From a virus (lineage: Duplodnaviria > Caudoviricetes): a DNA stretch of 36,088 nucleotides. A model generated the notes under the pieces. The model worked only from the letters and a program-made list of their open reading frames with translations, was not told where the DNA came from and ran no database searches. Made by a program: the position numbers and the translations under genes. Where the stretch lies: IMG/VR virus record IMGVR_UViG_3300032227_000453, positions 1 through 36,088 of that record; one strand, given 5' to 3'. This document shows positions 812 through 13,714 of this stretch, piece after piece. The first letter of the stretch is position 1. Each line of letters begins with the position of its first letter.

Positions 812-1099
812 TCATTTCGACAGTCTTGGCGAGTTGTGAGCAATGTAGTTTTTCCATTCTCCAGCATCACGAATGGCTTCGGCATTTCGGATTATTTCCG
901 TTACTCCAGCACAATCTTGGCGCATGGCCCTGAGCTTTTCTAGGCAGTATTCCAGCGCGGAGTCGAGAGCAACCTCGCGCCGGGACCGCCAGTCCACGTC
1001 ATAGCATCCGCATTCGCATTCTCCATGTGCTGAGCAAGCGCAGCCATCGCCGGGGAGATGGCCAGCCACAACGCTAACAAGCCGTTCGATGTTACTCAT
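812..1099 (-). CDS. Hypothetical Cys-rich protein (CxC...CxCxC)
   Basis: 95 aa; overlaps the upstream stop; starts in an attC-like left half-site and ends through a degenerate att-like site. Confidence 0.65.
   Translation of the reverse strand: MSNIERLVSVVAGHLPGDGCACSAHGECECGCYDVDWRSRREVALDSALEYCLEKLRAMRQDCAGVTEIIRNAEAIRDAGEWKNYIAHNSPRLSK
1072..1095 (+). mobile_element. Orphan left half of an attC-like site
   Basis: CGCTAAC-AAGCC-GTTCGATG resembles R''-spacer-L'' of the intact sites; no matching right arm found. Confidence 0.4.
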
Positions 1100-1640
1100 T
1101 GGCTCCTCTTTCTATCGCATCGAGCGCATCAGCAAGAGCGCGGATGAACAAACCGGTGTGCGGCGCGTCCTTCCATAACGGGGTCTCCCATCGATCGACA
1201 ACCGCTTTAGCAGCCTCTGCCAGCTTGTTACGTTGTTCTTCGGTTTTTTTTCGCAACATTTCGGATGACAAAGCAAGGCGTTGCCACGAATCAAGTTGCT
1301 CTCGCGCTTCGTTACGTTCACGTTGCAGCTCCGCCATCCTATCGTTCAGGTGTTTGGCAGCGTCAGACAGAACCCGCCGCTCCTTCTCAGACTCCTCCAG
1401 CTTGCGTGCCAGCACGTCAGCCTTCAGCTTCCAGCTCATCGACTGGTTTGCCCAGCTCTCGCATTGCTCCTCCATCTCGGCGAGTTCACGTTCGAGCTGT
1501 CTAGCAAAAGTCGGCCATTCATACGTTGCGGGGGCTAGGCTACTTTCAAAGCCATACAAATCAAAGTGGCGAATGCCTTCTTCGTTTTGATCCGTCCTCG
1601 GTGTTGGTCGTAGTCTCATGGTTTTGAAGTTTTGATTCAC
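1092..1640 (-). CDS. Coiled-coil 'TPRTD...LERELA' family protein, paralog 2 (start GTG 1640 or ATG 1619)
   Basis: Shares N-terminus with 532-753 and a C-terminal module (VVDRWETPLWKDAPHTGLFIRALADALD) with 1887-2315. Confidence 0.75.
   Translation of the reverse strand: MNQNFKTMRLRPTPRTDQNEEGIRHFDLYGFESSLAPATYEWPTFARQLERELAEMEEQCESWANQSMSWKLKADVLARKLEESEKERRVLSDAAKHLNDRMAELQRERNEAREQLDSWQRLALSSEMLRKKTEEQRNKLAEAAKAVVDRWETPLWKDAPHTGLFIRALADALDAIERGANE
1119..1196. repeat. 78-bp perfect direct repeat, copy 1
   Basis: Identical to 1974-2051 by manual alignment. Confidence 0.9.
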
Positions 1641-1673
1641 CCGATCTTTGGCGAGTAATCTTGGATGTTAGCT
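1626..1673 (+). mobile_element. Array-head recombination site (attI-position, atypical attC-like), array 1
   Basis: R box GTTAGCT at 1667-1673; 32/35 nt identical to 4223-4257; short GATTCAC/GTAATC stem; no AAC-containing R''. Confidence 0.65.
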
Positions 1674-1877
1674 TGGAATTTCAATGTATGCGATTCCGTC
1701 ACATTTTTCGCAAATATATCTTTCTGCCGTGTCAGCATCGGCATTACATGGATTGCCATCTTCGTCGTATGCTTGGTATTCAATTCCATTGCTGTCGCAA
1801 GCCGGGCATTTGCGGAATCTTACTTCTCCGCATATTACCTGTCTTAGCCATTCGTTTGAGCATTCTGTGTATTTCAT
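1668..1877 (-). CDS. Cassette K1 protein, small putative Zn-binding protein (two CxxC)
   Basis: CPAC...CEKC; TAA stop lies in the R box at 1668-1670. Confidence 0.75.
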   Translation of the reverse strand: MKYTECSNEWLRQVICGEVRFRKCPACDSNGIEYQAYDEDGNPCNADADTAERYICEKCDGIAYIEIPS

Positions 1878-1965
1878 AAAAGACAGCTAACAAGACGCGC
1901 CATCCAACGGCGTGGGTGTCTCTAGTTGATTTGGTTGTCCTGCGCCACCGTGGATGCGCTTTGCG
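1668..1965 (+). mobile_element. Integron-type gene cassette K1 (298 bp) with inverted gene
   Basis: Begins G|TTAGCT; own R'' is AGCTAAC (exact reverse complement); ends with attC; visibly AT-richer than flanks. Confidence 0.85.
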
Positions 1966-1971
1966 TTCGGC
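1885..1971 (+). mobile_element. attC: attC site (87 bp)
   Basis: R'' AGCTAAC, spacer AAGAC, L'' GCG[C]CATC, C[A]ACGG ... CCGTG, L' GATGCGC, spacer TTTGC, R' GTTCGGC; canonical extrahelical C and A on the top strand. Confidence 0.9.
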
Positions 1972-2315
1972 GAATCGAGCGCATCAGCAAGAGCGCGGAT
2001 GAACAAACCGGTGTGCGGCGCGTCCTTCCATAACGGGGTCTCCCATCGATCAACCACCGCCCTAGCAGCTTCGGCCAGCTGGTCCCGCTGCTCCCGTGCC
2101 TCGGCTAGCCGCTCGATTTCGTCTAGCGATTCAAGCAGTCGCCCTTCTGCCACTGTTTTCCATTCGTCGCGGTCTTTTATCGCATCGGCGAGCTCGCGTT
2201 CAAGCTGGCGGTAAACATCCTCATGCACGACGCTGCAAGGTCGGCTGGAAATCGTGTCCACGCGGTCAATCGGCATCGCTGCCTCGTCAGTCCTCGGTGT
2301 GGGGGTGTCTTTCAT
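1887..2315 (-). CDS. 'TPRTD...LERELA' family protein, paralog 3; C-terminus encoded by attC
   Basis: 142 aa; reads through the whole attC and stops at TAG inside R''. Confidence 0.75.
   Translation of the reverse strand: MKDTPTPRTDEAAMPIDRVDTISSRPCSVVHEDVYRQLERELADAIKDRDEWKTVAEGRLLESLDEIERLAEAREQRDQLAEAARAVVDRWETPLWKDAPHTGLFIRALADALDSPNAKRIHGGAGQPNQLETPTPLDGASC
1974..2051. repeat. 78-bp perfect direct repeat, copy 2
   Basis: Identical to 1119-1196. Confidence 0.9.
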
Positions 2316-2698
2316 ACAAGCTCCTCCGGTAGTTCGTCAGCTTCGATGCGGATCATGGACGCCATTAGTTCTGGAGCCGTGTTGTAGGAATCAACCCAGC
2401 TTCCTCCCCAAACATAGCCGACATCGACCACGTTGTCGCGCACGCGCCAGTAAGTGGTCTTGGATTTGTTCGTGTAGAACTCAAACTCCCGCAGGTCTTC
2501 AGCGGGTTCCTCCTCATCCATCCAGAACGTGGACGGGCTGCTGCATGACGAGATGCCGACGCACTTGAGAATCTCGATGTGGTCACCAGGGTTGCTCGCA
2601 GCCAGCTCCTCGGCAGCTTCTTGCGCTCCCTTAAGGGTGGCGTAGCGCGTCTCGTATTCGAGATCGGACGTGAATTGGACGTAGTATGACGGCTTCAT
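2312..2698 (-). CDS. Hypothetical protein
   Basis: 128 aa; ATGA overlaps at both ends. Confidence 0.75.
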   Translation of the reverse strand: MKPSYYVQFTSDLEYETRYATLKGAQEAAEELAASNPGDHIEILKCVGISSCSSPSTFWMDEEEPAEDLREFEFYTNKSKTTYWRVRDNVVDVGYVWGGSWVDSYNTAPELMASMIRIEADELPEELV

Positions 2699-2913
2699 GG
2701 TTGTCCCTCCTTCTTCCAGACCATGATCTCCAGCGTCTCATCGAAGCCGATAAACGTCTTGCAGCCATTGTGGTCGTAGCCTTCCGGGTTCCTCACTCCC
2801 TTGACCCACAGCCCGTCTTCGCCGATGTCGAGGATCTCGTAGGACACCCACTCCGACCCGTCATCCCATGCGCTGGTCTTCCAAAATACTAGGATTCTAT
2901 CTCCAATTTTCAT
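2695..2913 (-). CDS. Hypothetical protein
   Basis: 72 aa; fits the operon tiling. Confidence 0.7.
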   Translation of the reverse strand: MKIGDRILVFWKTSAWDDGSEWVSYEILDIGEDGLWVKGVRNPEGYDHNGCKTFIGFDETLEIMVWKKEGQP

Positions 2914-2917
2914 AGCT

Positions 2918-3220
2918 TCAGATTGTTTGTCGTAGATCTCGGTAAATTCTGTTCACTGATTTGTTGCCCTTGAGCATCTGGCGGCGTCTCCAGTTCTTGA
3001 GCGAGTTCAGGACCAGTCCGAACTGCAGCTCGACCATCGCGAGACTCGCGCCGTTTGGCCTTGCCTTCTCGTAAGTCTGGTTCGCTTTCTCCATCAGCGC
3101 GTCAACCTCTGGCCGACCGCGCCCGGGTGCGATGTTCGTCTTGCGTTCCGGCTTCGGTGCGGATCTCGGGATCTTCGCGGCAGCCTGCCGGGCTAGCTCT
3201 AGTTCTCGGGGAGTGATCAC
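2918..3220 (-). CDS. Hypothetical basic protein, possible HTH
   Basis: GTG at 3220 overlaps the upstream TGA (GTGA); helix-turn-helix-like C-terminal half. Confidence 0.6.
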   Translation of the reverse strand: MITPRELELARQAAAKIPRSAPKPERKTNIAPGRGRPEVDALMEKANQTYEKARPNGASLAMVELQFGLVLNSLKNWRRRQMLKGNKSVNRIYRDLRQTI

Positions 3221-3372
3221 TCCAGTTCGTTGTCCCATTCGATGAGCCCGATGAGGATGGCCAGTGCTGCCCCTAGCGCGAACCAGATGGCAAGCTGGGC
3301 GTCCCCTGTTGCGGCGGCTACGGCTGCGGCTACGACGAGCCATCCGCCCGCCCCTAAGATGATGAGTTTCAT
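3217..3372 (-). CDS. Small two-TM membrane protein
   Basis: MKLIILGAGGWLVVAAAV...LAIWFALGAALAILIGLI; two hydrophobic stretches. Confidence 0.65.
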   Translation of the reverse strand: MKLIILGAGGWLVVAAAVAAATGDAQLAIWFALGAALAILIGLIEWDNELE

Positions 3373-3379
3373 GGCGTGT

Positions 3380-3610
3380 TCAGTTCGATTGATTGGTTTC
3401 CTCATAATCCGGCTCGACTGTAAAGCCGCTTTTGAGTTCATGGTGAAAAATGTAGGACGCTAGGGCGCGGTCGCTTTCCTCTTGGAGCCGGCTGCATCCG
3501 CCCTGACAAATCAGCGGACTCTCCACGATGAACACGGCCTCGACTCGGTGCCCTCCGATTAAGACCCACGCGTTTACCTTGATCCGGCGTTTCTTGCTTT
3601 TCTTTTTCAT
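3380..3610 (-). CDS. Hypothetical protein
   Basis: ATG at 3610 overlaps the stop of the DnaC-like gene. Confidence 0.6.
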   Translation of the reverse strand: MKKKSKKRRIKVNAWVLIGGHRVEAVFIVESPLICQGGCSRLQEESDRALASYIFHHELKSGFTVEPDYEETNQSN

Positions 3611-4227
3611 AGGCCTGACTGCTTTGCTTTCCTGAATGAGTCCCACTCGAACGCCAGCCCGCACCCGTTCTCCCTGATGCGGTCAAGGACAGCAGGTGAT
3701 AGTGACGCCGCGAGCTGCTTCCGTGGGTAATTGCTAATGATGATCGTCGGGCGTTCATGCTGGTAACGGGCATCGATGATGGAGGTGAGCTTGCTGTTCT
3801 CGAACTCCGTCTCAGCTCGTTCTTGGATTTCATCGATCACCAGGAGCGCGGCGTCAACGTAATTCTCCACGATTTCCTTCTCCGACTTCGGCGAGGCGTG
3901 GTGGTAGGACGACTTAATGTCAGAGAATAGGTTCACCGCCGTGGTGTAGAGCATCGGACGCTTGACCGTGGATGCCGTCCAGCCTACCCCGCCAGCCGAT
4001 GCGTTAGGGCGCGATGGCTTGTGGTTCTTTGCCAGCTCCCACGCCATCCTCGTCTTGCCGGTGCCATGCCCGCCGTGCATGATCACAATGCCACCAGAAT
4101 CGATCGCCGCGAGGGCTTGGGCATAGTTGGCGTGCCAGCCCGCCCCCTCGGCTGCAGGGGCGTTCTCGTAGCGTTTCGGGAATCCTTTGAGCGCGTTCAT
4201 GTTTCTGATTGGCGAACGATTGTTCAC
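3607..4227 (-). CDS. DnaC/IstB-like AAA+ ATPase (helicase loader-like); start GTG 4227 or ATG 4200
   Basis: Walker A GGHGTGKT, Walker B LLVIDE, 'IIDARY...PTIIISN...DRI' typical of DnaC/IstB. Confidence 0.88.
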   Translation of the reverse strand: MNNRSPIRNMNALKGFPKRYENAPAAEGAGWHANYAQALAAIDSGGIVIMHGGHGTGKTRMAWELAKNHKPSRPNASAGGVGWTASTVKRPMLYTTAVNLFSDIKSSYHHASPKSEKEIVENYVDAALLVIDEIQERAETEFENSKLTSIIDARYQHERPTIIISNYPRKQLAASLSPAVLDRIRENGCGLAFEWDSFRKAKQSGL

Positions 4228-4260
4228 CCGACCTTTGGCGAGTGAACTTGGATGTTATGC
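4211..4260 (+). mobile_element. Array-head recombination site (attI-position, atypical attC-like), array 2
   Basis: GGCGAAC...GTTCAC...GTGAAC-TTGGAT-GTTATGC; near-identical to 1636-1670; lacks the canonical extrahelical base. Confidence 0.7.
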
Positions 4261-4574
4261 TGGGAATTTTCCACCTCGACGTGCCCCGTGATAAATCCAC
4301 GTTTGGGCATTCTGGCGGAGTGCATGACCGAAAGAATGTCGATACAGGTGTCCACGTGGTCGCCGCGTTTCAGAGGCCCCATGGTGAAGTCTGCGAAGTC
4401 ATCCCACCCCGCTTCCCCGAGGTGTCCGGCAGCGAGCACGCGGTAGTTTCCGACATCGCCACCGCCGCGCATGTCTCCGGCTGTTCCGTCGTTTTCGATC
4501 TCCACTTGCAGGAGTTTGCGTTTTCGGGATTCGTCCCCCCGTGGGATCAGTTCAATGGTAATTCTAAGAGGCAT
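4224..4574 (-). CDS. Cassette K2 hypothetical protein
   Basis: 116 aa; ATG lies in R'' (GCATAAC); TGA overlaps the GTG of the DnaC-like gene inside the array-head site. Confidence 0.75.
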   Translation of the reverse strand: MPLRITIELIPRGDESRKRKLLQVEIENDGTAGDMRGGGDVGNYRVLAAGHLGEAGWDDFADFTMGPLKRGDHVDTCIDILSVMHSARMPKRGFITGHVEVENSQHNIQVHSPKVG

Positions 4575-4667
4575 AACAAGTCGTGGGTGAGCAACCGGGA
4601 TCAGCGGTTGAGTTCATTTTCGTGTTCTGGCTTTTGCACCGCTGATCCCGGTGCCACCACTATTGCG
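4255..4667 (+). mobile_element. Integron-type gene cassette K2 (413 bp) with inverted gene
   Basis: Begins G|TTATGC; own R'' is GCATAAC (exact reverse complement). Confidence 0.85.
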
Positions 4668-4673
4668 TTCTGC
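4571..4673 (+). mobile_element. attC: attC site (103 bp)
   Basis: R'' GCATAAC, AAGTC, GTG[G]GTG[A]GC[A]ACCGGGATCAGCGGT ... ACCGCTGATCCCGGT GC CACCAC, TATTGC, R' GTTCTGC; 15-bp perfect stem, three extrahelical bases. Confidence 0.88.
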
Positions 4674-4882
4674 TCAAATTTTTCCCAATGGTCTTTGTGG
4701 GTTTCGATCCATAGGGAGTGTTCGGGATTTGACCTCGGCGCGAATATCTCCATTCGTCCATCTTTCTTGCTGCGTCGAGCTTCAAGAACTCCAAGAGCAC
4801 CTGATTCCCATTCGGAAGACCGCAGAACAAAGCATCGCATCCGACGCCAAAAAGCATTCAGTTTGAATCGAAGTGTTTTCAT
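4601..4882 (-). CDS. Cassette K3 hypothetical protein
   Basis: 93 aa; starts inside its own attC and stops inside the neighbouring attC. Confidence 0.7.
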   Translation of the reverse strand: MKTLRFKLNAFWRRMRCFVLRSSEWESGALGVLEARRSKKDGRMEIFAPRSNPEHSLWIETHKDHWEKFEQNAIVVAPGSAVQKPEHENELNR

Positions 4883-4903
4883 GGCGCGGATGGATTTTGA
4901 TCG
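4668..4903 (+). mobile_element. Integron-type gene cassette K3 (236 bp) with inverted gene
   Basis: Begins G|TTCTGC; own R'' is GCAGAAC (exact reverse complement). Confidence 0.85.
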
Positions 4904-4909
4904 TTAGCC
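4822..4909 (+). mobile_element. attC: attC site (88 bp)
   Basis: R'' GCAGAAC, AAAGC, ATC[G]CATCCG[A]CGCCA ... TGGCG CGGATG GAT, TTTGATC, R' GTTAGCC; right spacer (7 nt) slightly long. Confidence 0.83.
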
Positions 4910-5154
4910 GAAAGAAATTCCAGCCATTCAGTGATTTTCACGGAGTCTGAGACGTGTTGCCCGCAGTCGAGAATATAGACAAACCTCATGTTTTCTGAGT
5001 CCCATGAGACTTGCGTGAGAATCCAGGCTTTAGGGCAGAACCTATCCACGAATCCGCCTTTTTCGTCGTGCGCGATGCTTCCCCACGAATCAAGAGCGGC
5101 TAACAATGCGTGCGAGGCAACGCCGACAACATCGTTCTTCGATTCGGAATTCAT
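4879..5154 (-). CDS. Cassette K4 hypothetical protein
   Basis: 91 aa; ATGA overlaps at both ends, each inside an attC. Confidence 0.75.
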   Translation of the reverse strand: MNSESKNDVVGVASHALLAALDSWGSIAHDEKGGFVDRFCPKAWILTQVSWDSENMRFVYILDCGQHVSDSVKITEWLEFLSANDQNPSAP

Positions 5155-5178
5155 TCGCGGCGTGCCTCCACTTGATCG
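4904..5178 (+). mobile_element. Integron-type gene cassette K4 (275 bp) with inverted gene
   Basis: Begins G|TTAGCCG; own R'' is CGGCTAAC (8-nt exact reverse complement). Confidence 0.85.
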
Positions 5179-5184
5179 TTCTTT
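5098..5184 (+). mobile_element. attC: attC site (87 bp)
   Basis: R'' GGCTAAC, AATGC, L'' GTG[C]GAGG, CA[A]CGCCG ... CGGCGTG, L' CCTCCAC, TTGATC, R' GTTCTTT; canonical extrahelical C and A. Confidence 0.9.
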
Positions 5185-5369
5185 CCAACAACCCTGCGGA
5201 CCACCTGCCAGACGGCGCGGATGACACCCCTACGCCACCATGGTGCCACGTCTCGCGTGGATCGGTATTCGACACCCCATGCTGGGGTGTAGCGTTTCGG
5301 CTCCTCGGGGCAGTGGCGGCAGGGGATGTGCCGACCGCACTTGCAGATGTATTCGTTCATGGTTTCCAA
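5151..5369 (-). CDS. Hypothetical protein (CxC...CxxC); C-terminus encoded by attC
   Basis: 72 aa; ends ...KNDQVEARRE* with ATGA overlap inside attC. Confidence 0.65.
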   Translation of the reverse strand: METMNEYICKCGRHIPCRHCPEEPKRYTPAWGVEYRSTRDVAPWWRRGVIRAVWQVVRRVVGKNDQVEARRE

Positions 5370-5704
5370 AGATTGAGGGTTCGCAGAAAGGCTTCGGCTC
5401 GTTCGGCGGCGGTTGCGCTAGCTACAGCAAAGTATCCCCATCCGTTTGGGGCGAATCCCTTTTCGTCGCGCTCCGGGCCGATGGTCATTCTTGCTAGCAT
5501 CTCGCCGTATTTGTATTCGAGTTTGGGGTTTGCAATAAAAGCAATTTCAGCTTCGTTCATCGCGTTTAGGTCGTTGAGGTAATCTGGAATCTCATGCATT
5601 CCGTCGGCTGAAAGCTTTGCGCCATTTGGGAAATGCCATTCGCCATCAGATTGATAAAACCCGCAGGCCTGCGCAATGGCGATTCGTTGTTCTTGCTCGT
5701 TCAT
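5357..5704 (-). CDS. Hypothetical phage protein
   Basis: 115 aa; 'IAIAQACG...IPDYLNDLNAM...ATAAERAEAFL' pattern common in phage early regions. Confidence 0.75.
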   Translation of the reverse strand: MNEQEQRIAIAQACGFYQSDGEWHFPNGAKLSADGMHEIPDYLNDLNAMNEAEIAFIANPKLEYKYGEMLARMTIGPERDEKGFAPNGWGYFAVASATAAERAEAFLRTLNLWKP

Positions 5705-5711
5705 GGCTTAT

Positions 5712-5752
5712 TGATTTACCAGTCCTTCAGCGAGTGAACCGGAGTGTTCATT
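5712..5752 (+). mobile_element. Third array-head-type site, apparently empty
   Basis: 26/37 nt ungapped identity to 4220-4256, including GCGAGTGAAC and GTT at the same register; intergenic. Confidence 0.5.
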
Positions 5753-6026
5753 TTGAGTCGAGGATTTGTGAGATCGTGTATCCTTTCTGGAACTGGGTCA
5801 TCATGGAGTAGTCCACCGGAAGCGTCGGCTCGATCTTCTCCGACTCCTGCGTGCGGATGAGCACCTCCAGCGCGGAGCTAGGCGTCCGCCCCTCACGCTT
5901 GGCGAGGCGCATGATTCGCTGGTAGGTCTCCTGTTGCAAGGTAAAATTCACCGCAACCTTCTGCTCCCAGGGCTTGTGGCGTGGCCTTCCCGCCGTGATC
6001 TTGTAACCGTTGTCTCGCGCTCTCAT
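5748..6026 (-). CDS. Ribbon-helix-helix-like DNA-binding protein
   Basis: GRP...VAVNFTLQQETYQRIMRLAKREGRTPSSALEVLI; ATG 6026 overlaps the upstream TGA. Confidence 0.7.
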   Translation of the reverse strand: MRARDNGYKITAGRPRHKPWEQKVAVNFTLQQETYQRIMRLAKREGRTPSSALEVLIRTQESEKIEPTLPVDYSMMTQFQKGYTISQILDSK

Positions 6027-6455: not shown

Positions 6456-6901
6456 GGCGCGTGGGTGCGTCTTCCATACTCGGCGATCAGGAGGCTGTCG
6501 GCTGTTGCGTGTGTCACCTTGATGTCGGGGAACAGTTCCTGCGCGAGCTTCTTGGTGATGTTTTTGTCGCCCTTCGTCATGCAGCCCATGGCTCGCTGCC
6601 ATACCTGCGGGCGGACGCGCTCGAACGGGATGCCCGCTGCGGTCAGTGCCATCTCTAGGTTGCCGTAGCCCCGGCCAAACGTGAAGGCGGAGACCACACC
6701 CTGCTGCGGGCTGCTGGCGACTTGCTCAAGGTAGGCCTTCGCCGTCGGGTGCGTGTCCCGGTAGCATCGCGCCAGCCCGTGGAGCAGCTCCCAGAGGTCG
6801 CCGATGGTGTCGGGCATCTTCTCCGCGCATGCTCGCCCGTTTTCGTCGATCCATGCGATGCCGCCGTTTACGCCAGGATCGACGCCGATGATGGTTTTCA
6901 T
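6452..6901 (-). CDS. RuvC-like Holliday junction resolvase
   Basis: IIGVDPGVNGGIA, YLEQV, FTFGRGYG, VRPQVWQ, ADSLLIA motifs. Confidence 0.88.
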   Translation of the reverse strand: MKTIIGVDPGVNGGIAWIDENGRACAEKMPDTIGDLWELLHGLARCYRDTHPTAKAYLEQVASSPQQGVVSAFTFGRGYGNLEMALTAAGIPFERVRPQVWQRAMGCMTKGDKNITKKLAQELFPDIKVTHATADSLLIAEYGRRTHAP

Positions 6902-7545
6902 GATTGTTGATTGGTTGGGAGTTTGCCGGGCTTCACGAACACAAGGAAGTAGGAATGAAAGATTCGCGCATGGCGTTGAGTTCCTTTTTGTGGTCCGGGC
7001 ATCCGGGATTTGGCGGGCAGGATGAAAAGGTCGAGAAGCCGGAAGCCTTCATGCTCTGCCCAGTTGCAGACGTTGACGTGGGTAGCGTGCATCCGGTGGT
7101 TGTGGATCACGTCTTGGCACTTGAAGACCAGCACGCCGCCGGGCTTCAGGACGCGCCATGCCTCAGAGAGCGTCCCTCGGTAGTGTTCCTCCAGTTCTTC
7201 GTATCGGTAGTATCCTCCGAACCGTGCCGTCATGGCCACCTTGCTGTTGTGGTCGCGTCCGTTCTTCACGTATGTCAGGAATGGCGGATCAAAGACCATA
7301 TTGCGAAGGCTGGCTGGACCGAGCGGGAGCATCTGGGAGTCAGCCTCGACCACGCCTTCATGCAATGGAGTGATGTCGAAGCAATATCGAGGACGCTCGC
7401 GCCCCTTCCAGAACGACCCGTTCCCGAATGTGGCATCGCACTCGAAGCCTCCCGGACAGTGTAGCCTCTCGATGGCTTTCAGGATTGCGTCATTGGTATC
7501 ATAGACGCTTCTCACGACGACATCGGTCTCCATTGTGGCGTTCAT
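6898..7545 (-). CDS. Amino (N6-A/N4-C) DNA methyltransferase-like protein
   Basis: DATFGNGSFW SAM-binding-like motif, VFDPPF catalytic motif, RVLKPGGVLVFK. Confidence 0.82.
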   Translation of the reverse strand: MNATMETDVVVRSVYDTNDAILKAIERLHCPGGFECDATFGNGSFWKGRERPRYCFDITPLHEGVVEADSQMLPLGPASLRNMVFDPPFLTYVKNGRDHNSKVAMTARFGGYYRYEELEEHYRGTLSEAWRVLKPGGVLVFKCQDVIHNHRMHATHVNVCNWAEHEGFRLLDLFILPAKSRMPGPQKGTQRHARIFHSYFLVFVKPGKLPTNQQS

Positions 7546-8606: not shown

Positions 8607-8608
8607 GT

Positions 8609-13111: not shown

Positions 13112-13510
13112 CAACCGTTCCACGAACAGGACAGCGTGGAGCACGGGCAAAGGGCGGTAGCGAGCGCACCGTTCACTCAATCTAGGATCGCTGAATCGCA
13201 CGCTGGGGACTCTCGTGCGGTTAGCCTGGGCAGGTTCCACCCCTCCCTCGTTTGTAGAGCAGACATCCGAACGCCCCGCGAGTGCGGCAGCTGATTTGGG
13301 ACCACAGAACCAACGAGGGATCAAGCGATCTCCCCGTAGAGTCCCCGTTACACAGACGCAAGCGTGAAGCGGGCAAGGGGTTTGGTTTGTTCATCGACTC
13401 GACGAACACGGAAGGCAGCATCTGGGAATATCCACGCTGGAAACCCATTACTCCCCTTCATAAATAATCCCTAAAAACCCGCCAGCATCGCGCCATTCGG
13501 CCAGCCGTGA

Positions 13511-13714
13511 CTGGTAGCTCGTTCACGCCGTCAGCTCGGTCGCGCTGGCAGCTCGGTCGCGCTGGTAGCTCGGTCGCATCGCCAGCCTGGCAGATCGGTC
13601 GATTGATACGCTCGTTTGCGACATCACCGGCAGCGCCTAGCGGATAGCTCATGGCGCCGGCAGCTCGACGACATCGCCAGCCTGTCAGCCGGTCGATTGC
13701 AACGCTCGTTCGCG
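13511..13714. repeat. 17-bp tandem repeats plus a ~43-bp imperfect duplication
   Basis: CTGG(C/T)AGCTCGGTCGCG-like units at 13511, 13528, 13545, 13562 and 13587; 13577-13620 resembles 13672-13714. Confidence 0.8.

Follow-up and report, generated by a model that had tools for sequence, protein, structure and literature searches.

The locus described here raises the question of how integron-type gene cassettes come to lie, and to be replaced, among the early genes of a freshwater phage in which no integrase is found. It is part of IMG/VR record IMGVR_UViG_3300032227_000453, a Caudoviricetes virus; the whole stretch analysed, 36,088 nucleotides in length, is referred to below as the window. An initial annotation had described four attC-like hairpins that delimit small single-gene units in two arrays, here called A (one cassette) and B (cassettes B1, B2 and B3). 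Our analysis leads to a reading that we consider likely: the early block holds four integron-type cassettes, their genes are inverted relative to attC, and they are probably replaced at the integron crossover (G/TT) by an integron integrase (IntI) acting in trans, most likely the chromosomal IntI of an inferred Verrucomicrobiota host.

A structural scan with the pattern AAC, five nucleotides, a stem with bulges, five to seven nucleotides and GTT found exactly four sites in the window, all on the plus strand: attC1 (1885-1971), attC2 (4571-4673), attC3 (4822-4909) and attC4 (5098-5184). The same scan yielded nothing when applied to 30 dinucleotide-shuffled versions of the sequence. We also built a covariance model on 18 attC sites of bacterial origin, with those of the window kept out. 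Its pairs covary strongly (two-sided changes in 15 of 19), and it scored the window sites on the plus strand at 54.9, 55.1, 50.2 and 54.1 bits, respectively; the next match scored 14.1 bits. Scan and model together bear out the attC architecture of the four hairpins. Their lengths (87, 103, 88 and 87 nt) lie inside the 55-141 nt range stated for attC sites in PMC7370490, R'' ends in AAC and R' starts with GTT, and all have paired L boxes and an unpaired central spacer; the R''-L'' arm carries two or three extrahelical bases (three in attC2), of which the first is G, C, C and G on the bottom strand of sites 1 to 4. It had been predicted that the bottom strands would fold into attC structures, and this was also found: the computed probability of the recombinogenic fold on that strand is 0.21, 0.15, 0.10 and 0.32, and in every case it exceeds that of the top strand. 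In plain folding energy, attC2 (z -5.9) and attC3 (z -2.65) stand out from shuffles. The sequence of attC1 is near the Verrucomicrobiota chromosomal attC type, with similar sites in loci of the GTDB genomes.

Each site closes a unit running from G/TT to G/TT: cassette A at 1668-1965 (298 bp), B1 at 4255-4667 (413 bp), B2 at 4668-4903 (236 bp) and B3 at 4904-5178 (275 bp), all on the plus strand by their attC. Exact reverse complements of the R'' 7-mers are present at 1667, 4254, 4667 and 4903, one for each of the four cassettes; in cassette A, for example, the R box GTTAGCT at 1667 complements R'' at 1885. By chance such an exact partner was found for 24 of 500 AAC sites, or 4.8% per site. The offset reported in the initial annotation, in which each upstream R box complements the R'' of its own cassette, is therefore exact in four of four cases and at the crossovers it had named, and the R''/R' pairs of the present hairpins are indeed imperfect, with mismatches at one to four of the four free positions.

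All cassette open reading frames (ORFs) are on the minus strand. This corresponds to the bottom strand of attC and reverses the arrangement in bacterial cassettes, a feature that the initial annotation does not mention. In a canonical cassette the ORF precedes its attC and is encoded by the attC top strand; cassettes A, B1 and B3 depart from this layout, and B2 is inferred to do so. Substitutions were counted at positions 1/2/3 of the minus-strand frame against two homologs per gene. The counts were 14/5/27 and 16/8/38 for the gene of cassette A (against L177 and L178), 10/6/32 and 17/12/48 for that of B1, and 9/6/30 and 12/9/26 for that of B3; in the copy of B1 in run X2, 14 of the 16 differences listed fall at the third position. 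These data show bottom-strand coding for A, B1 and B3. Top-strand ORFs (e.g. 4209-4907 and 1684-1890) were rejected as antisense shadows, with amino acid identities of 0.41-0.66 as against 0.73-0.90 for the bottom strand; the in-register top frame nonetheless stays open in both B1 homologs compared.

A single search pattern derived from attC1 and attC3 was run on GTDB and on viral contigs, where it gave 124 and 21 loci, respectively; 76 of the 80 GTDB loci listed are titled Verrucomicrobiota. Among 75 bacterial loci scored, genes were forward in 57, reverse in 5 and unclear in 13 (52 more had too little flank), whereas the 18 viral loci scored comprised 15 reverse, one forward and two unclear (three were unscored). 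Collapsing the viral duplicates by hand left nine reverse, one forward and two unclear. A start-free test on cassette bodies agrees, more weakly for the phages: 86 of 118 bacterial bodies were open on the top strand only, 6 on the bottom only, 13 on both and 13 on neither, and the corresponding numbers for 40 viral bodies were 2, 7, 26 and 5. Gene inversion is a trait of the phages.

The inverted genes also pass through the sites in a preferred frame. At all four window sites the long open bottom-strand frame that leads into the site has the crossover AAC as an Asn codon. Of 49 viral sites, 33 show the same frame, 3 have a stop within the R box, 2 are entered in another frame and 11 have no such frame; among 158 bacterial sites the Asn frame accounts for 29 and the other frames, which are thus as common, for 33 and 7, with a stop in 2 and no open frame in 87. 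An ATGA stop/start overlap inside the site and in the Asn frame is present in two of the four window sites, in 14 of 50 viral and in 6 of 178 bacterial ones. In the arm of attC3, ATGA forms the overlap of the B3 stop and the B2 start on the bottom strand; in attC4 it joins the stop of the flanking phage gene to the start of B3. This flanking gene (5151-5360, minus strand) runs into attC4, and its L002 homolog shares the N-terminus only. At array A, the flanking gene at 1887-2315 (minus strand) runs through attC1 and stops in the R'' box, and its paralog at 1092-1619 ends differently. We infer that such a frame lock would preserve expression after a cassette swap.

The four genes are small. That of cassette A (1668-1877, minus strand) encodes 69 aa with two CxxC motifs, has its stop TAA in the R box, and has eight homologs. 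The B1 gene (4224-4574, minus strand; 116 aa, 34 homologs) starts at an ATG in R'', and its tail past HN is encoded by the neighbouring site; 32 of the 34 homologs start with MP(L/I)R, the ATG lying within R'', and in 13 of 34 the core ends in GHN and is followed by 13 different tails. The B3 gene (4879-5154, minus strand; 91 aa, 35 hits including itself) starts in the loop of attC4 and ends in attC3. Among 34 B3 homologs scored, 23 have both a cassette-type head and tail and four have neither; a tree of the family (34 rows and 64 columns, after one row with a truncated core was dropped) has none of its 30 branches well supported and does not give the order of plain and cassette forms. For B2, a minus-strand gene most likely at 4601-4882 (alternative frame 4660-4857) is suggested by frame and ATGA coupling; two weak homolog candidates (E 2e-4) from unrelated contexts were dismissed. 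None of the four proteins matched Pfam or PHROG, PHROG 8231 was weakly matched by 4 of 26 B1 family members, and the ESM Atlas gave no usable match for B1 or for a B3 homolog.

Direct evidence of replacement comes from relatives, available as assembled contigs from six runs that hold part of the region, of which X1 may be the source run; those of X2-X5 match the core genes at approximately 90-99%. Joints from 4256 to 4897 and from 4256 to 5177 were found in X2, X3, X4 and X5. Record 18 of X5, a single 718-nt contig, reads 4230-4256, then 661 other letters, then 5177-5206, so that all three B cassettes are replaced. A 753-nt X5 record keeps B3 and has other DNA before 4897, about 416 letters as deduced from the record coordinates. 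In X2, B1 is present as a unit (4254-4670) in a 1,945-nt contig, after what appears to be the arm of another attC, and B3 is kept behind a different upstream unit in X2, X3 and X5. Movement as a unit bounded at G/TT is thus seen for B1 and B3; cassette A was met in distant contexts only, and B2 is missing from the relatives and unseen elsewhere.

Both arrays start after a 34-nt repeat common to two lead sites, degenerate hairpins that end in the leading R box of each array and that the initial annotation does not mention. Lead site A (1623-1673, plus strand; crossover 1667/1668) is a short degenerate attC-like hairpin in which the first extrahelical base is present and R'' is broken (AAG, not AAC); its fold z is -0.01, and it is absent from the covariance-model matches. 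Lead site B (4211-4260, plus strand; crossover 4254/4255), a 50-nt degenerate attC without the first extrahelical base, is the match of 14.1 bits (E 0.094); its fold z is -3.36, and it contains the B1 stop, which overlaps a GTG in frame with dnaC. It forms the fixed edge of the variable array, since 4206-4256 has no differences in X2 and X3 and the joints begin at 4256. By eye, AAT/AAC and GTT are separated by 6-7 nt in the lead sites, as in an attC arm, and by about 5 nt in the sites before the first cassette of IntI-bearing phages. In run X6 an identical TTGGAT spacer closes a full attC arm before B1. Leads A and B may be worn attC sites serving as fixed docking edges, rather than attI. Judged by size alone they may still be active, as a 50-nt site of phage TJE1 was recombined in the assay reported in the text of Qi et al. 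(PMC9892861). An exact search for the lead element in viral contigs gave no matches, and an exact R'' partner of lead B at 775 was dismissed as chance, being 3.4 kb away.

Cassettes or their genes recur in other phages. Phage G003 matches the window by blastn at 4254-4673 only (83%), a match that covers the B1 cassette end to end, and is otherwise unrelated. It has 14 covariance-model matches, all on the plus strand; at 26-34.5 kb, the array genes listed lie on the minus strand. B1 is also found in L020 and L023 with other neighbours. Homologs of the A and B3 genes sit in cassettes whose attC body differs (L177 and L181), and L178 and L183 have them as plain phage genes; a B3 homolog in L182 is preceded by a decayed attC. 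Plain forms of cassette genes, without attC, were found in L178, L183, L021 and L176. Of 401 Verrucomicrobiales genomes, one contains the B1 family, in a phage-like stretch that lacks attC, and for this reason the cassette genes appear to be drawn from a phage gene pool. The same B1 gene was also seen with different attC bodies that diverge just past R'' (4571-4673 compared with L019, L020 and L023; loose ends at 4580 in X3 and X6), which suggests that attC sites are themselves exchanged between cassettes. In the inverted array of L020, a gene at 3430-3747 is Tad2-like, of the anti-Thoeris type (PF11195, E 9e-23; one of 14 proteins scanned); by analogy with it, one may guess at host-conflict roles for the cassette proteins.

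Where, then, does the integrase come from? Protein scan and six-frame search of the window found no tyrosine recombinase or IntI, confirming the initial annotation on this point; the window accordingly holds no intI gene of the kind that a complete integron has. With at least two attC sites on one strand within 4 kb and no intI nearby (here four within 3.3 kb), the arrays are by definition a CALIN (cluster of attC sites lacking an integron integrase). The relative G004 bridges the end and the start of the window, with about 1.8 kb between the matching parts. This stretch, which covers the probable gap in the window, holds four small genes (by eye, lysis-like genes and a phosphoesterase), and no integrase match was found in it or elsewhere in G004; the phage genome is therefore probably near-complete and integrase-free. 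Integron integrase genes are present in three of four viral records checked, apparently whole in two of them and truncated in the third. That of G003 (349 aa) has IntI4 as its best solved relative (2A3V, E 1.4e-32); the two align across the integron-specific insertion, and the catalytic residues R-K-H-R-H-Y are present. The enzyme of G002 has 325 aa, and in G005 a truncated gene immediately adjoins a B1 homolog. Both whole enzymes score below the TIGR02249 cut-off (236 and 180 as against 265 bits) and may form a phage clade. The phage integrase genes (L173 8053-9102, L169 1026-2003 and L023 3422-3646) lie on the same strand as the inverted cassette genes. On the host side, the IntI cut-off was passed by 47 of 101 sampled Luteolibacter-family genomes. 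The earlier proposal of a host integrase acting in trans thus stands as far as the integrase-free genome goes, but the source need not be the host.

The mechanism that we propose is the following. An IntI supplied in trans, by the host or by a co-resident phage, would excise and insert inverted cassettes at G/TT. The phage early transcript would read the array from its far side, as gene direction implies, so that each attC precedes its gene. An upstream gene would enter at G/TT in the frame in which AAC is Asn, stop within the hairpin, and pass the ribosome to the start codon there; through this in-hairpin coupling any cassette could be swapped without breaking expression of the operon. The two lead hairpins would act as fixed docking edges, and a second phage genome present in the cell would be the source of new cassettes, some such phages bringing an IntI of their own. 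Transfer of blocks by the recombinase Erf surely spreads arrays as well, but alone would not explain three contents between the same lineage-specific edges.

Several observations weigh against this account. Three of the four window cassette bodies, and 26 of the 40 viral ones, are stop-free on both strands, so that orientation in the window is carried by the codon tests of three genes, and the viral loci were chosen by their likeness to the window and are non-independent. In plain folding energy attC1 (z 0.72) and attC4 (z -1.44) do no better than shuffles. The record is classed as linear, with a CheckV completeness of 50%, and the Verrucomicrobiota host is assigned from the attC type only. 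X2-X5 come from one freshwater study. The prediction that relatives would vary with breakpoints at G/TT held for array B, where the joints lie at the crossover or within six bases of it; one of them rejoins at 4897, six bases before the crossover, in a spacer common to attC sites, and array A is invariant (1575-2003 is identical in X2 and X4). Gain, loss and reordering had been expected; replacement at G/TT was found among the relatives, but no empty junction or clean loss, no excised circle (which would give a joint leading backwards at cassette ends) and no reordering of the same cassettes was seen among the joints listed, in assembled contigs, which drop rare forms.

A host IntI is ranked somewhat ahead of a phage IntI because it is common and because attC1 is of the host type. 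The alternative, in which cassettes and reaction are the same, the enzyme comes mainly from co-infecting or resident phages and the host integron is a bystander, seems to us rather unlikely. It draws on the joint presence in G003 of cassette B1 and an IntI4-like integrase, on the enzymes of G002 and G005, and on the phage-side gene pool; it has to contend with the frequency of host IntI, with the close match of attC1 to the host chromosomal type and with the sub-threshold scores of both whole phage integrases. Foreign phage attC sites were moreover recombined by IntI1 according to the text of PMC9892861, so that a dedicated enzyme would be unnecessary. A further explanation would dispense with present-day IntI activity: IntI would have assembled the arrays elsewhere or in the distant past, and these would now move only in blocks, by homologous recombination through the phage Erf and exonuclease VIII, with flanks and attC stems as homology. 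Bounded by one and the same lineage-specific lead B and right flank, at least three different contents were seen, and the B2/B3 crossover forms a boundary inside the array; the identity of B1 to X2 and G003 starts at the G of G/TT, the preceding sequence being unrelated; and the four R-box offsets are all still exact. These facts make it improbable, even though the phage encodes Erf, exonuclease VIII and RuvC and the B1 gene is found with attC bodies that part just past R''.

An insert in the relative L001 is more in keeping with such homologous transfer. L001 and L002 (77% identity) lack both arrays and have inverted arrays of their own elsewhere; they were dismissed as clean empty-site controls, since their flanking genes differ at this identity. 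The 2.3-kb insert (L001 1238-3521) lies between the MazG and exonuclease VIII genes, opposite an uninterrupted junction near 8608 in the window, and holds two inverted cassettes (one PAPS-reductase-like) with an attI-like site in front and no integrase. Its ends are at G/TT, yet it has a duplicated, diverged end of the exonuclease gene of about 20 nt, which homologous transfer would fit better than clean G/TT insertion. A very improbable explanation is that the hairpins are inert relics of bacterial cassettes acquired once and kept as spacers or expression signals. The decay of the lead sites, of a relic at 1072 and of the attC before the B3 homolog of L182 would suit it, but the variation bounded at crossovers among close relatives largely refutes it; in addition, the genes are absent from the host cassettes searched, the orientation is opposite, and the four sites retain a high computed recombinogenic fold. 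Replacement of inverted cassettes by an IntI in trans thus remains the reading we prefer.

Beyond this locus we suggest, tentatively and as something short of likely, that Verrucomicrobiota phages maintain a mirror image of the integron economy: a shared pool of inverted cassettes, each with its attC acting as a frame-locked translational coupler, which host or phage IntI would pass from one unrelated phage to another. Early operons might also make cassettes, through attC insertion at G/TT beside existing genes; they are considered as a birthplace because the same genes occur plain, without attC, in the four contigs named above.

The arrays lie in a leftward block in which a scan of 47 proteins identified a DnaC-like loader, RuvC, a DNA methyltransferase, MazG, exonuclease VIII and Erf; the rightward block, in the same scan, holds tail genes, a terminase and an SU10-type capsid. 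The DnaC-like helicase loader (3607-4200, minus strand; PHROG 50, E 1.5e-38) is a core gene lying downstream of array B in the direction of transcription. An Rfam scan of the window gave no matches, and neither did blastn of positions 1000-6000 against 50,697 GenBank phages. A possible fifth, decayed unit (5356-5746, 391 bp, plus strand) comprises a gene at 5357-5704 on the minus strand and a third copy of the lead element at 5715-5748, with G/TTCAT on both sides. It is missing from X2-X4 contigs, where six letters (GTTCAT) fit either side of the joint. As both an R'' partner and a covariance-model match were absent, a microhomology indel is as likely as a decayed cassette. A left-arm attC relic at 1072-1100 (10.6 bits) encodes the N-terminus (...ERLVS) of the ORF at 812-1099, at the opposite end of which lies a possible worn hairpin (780-841). 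The coiled-coil genes at 532-885, 1092-1619 and 1887-2315 are paralogous and have a common PTPRTD start, and joints between copies were seen in relatives. The DNA methyltransferase gene (6897-7541) is absent from most X2-X4 contigs (joint from 6896 to 7541), with no attC nearby. A 17-nt tandem repeat at 13508-13593, in a divergent region, is a possible replication origin.

Phage attC clusters have been published before; the window adds population-level breakpoints and a cassette shared end to end. Integrons have been treated as bacterial devices and phage attC sites as rare strays, whereas here the sites are suited to phage expression, differ at the crossover within natural populations and link unrelated phages. 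This points to a site-specific route by which phages become mosaic, and to a set of small accessory genes with ready-made boundaries for counter-defence screens. The first formation of cassettes is called largely unknown in the text of PMC5371416; genes found both with and without attC offer a handle on it and, if the reading is true, would make cassette origin directly testable. Some pipelines call ORFs on the top strand only, as the text of PMC7370490 states, and these would miss or mis-call inverted cassette genes.

The closest likeness is to the phage CALINs of Qi et al. 2023 (PMC9892861), which are likewise attC clusters without an integrase: 17 were reported in 10,705 genomes, and five of six sites recombined with IntI1. 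Their text, figures aside, gives TJE1 and PH101 the layout usual in bacteria; inverted genes, coupling and variation within populations go unmentioned there. When re-scored here, TJE1 has three attC sites on the gene strand and is canonical, and MW202573 (L188; 2069-3738), another phage of their set, has four on the strand opposite the annotated genes and is inverted, so that their set included an inverted array on which the text does not comment. In a full-text literature search, from whose coverage most subscription journals are missing, we found no account of phage cassettes that are inverted and translationally coupled. The sedentary chromosomal integrons of Verrucomicrobiota share the attC sequence type and anatomy of the window; they differ in having an intI platform and forward genes (the 86 top-only as against 6 bottom-only of 118 bodies given above), and their median cassette body, 477 nt, is about twice the 238 nt of the phages. 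SALINs (single attC sites lacking an integron integrase), inserted at attG (Loot et al., 10.1101/2022.09.11.507474), are alike in that IntI inserts one or two cassettes outside integrons with no integrase nearby, and such insertion is a plausible founding route for these arrays; they lie in bacterial chromosomes, however, and the text of that source does not mention inverted genes, reuse of one site or phage exchange. Synthetic attC sites placed in coding sequence still recombine when translated, according to the text of Nivina et al. 2020 (PMC7439510), but those sites were engineered, whereas the phage sites are natural and encode protein heads and tails on the bottom strand. Finally, in class 1 integrons a stop/start overlap at ORF-11 in attI1 similarly aids translation of cassette genes, as the text of PMC8876359 describes; that coupling is on the top strand and proceeds from attI, whereas the coupling in the phage lies within the bottom strand of each attC.

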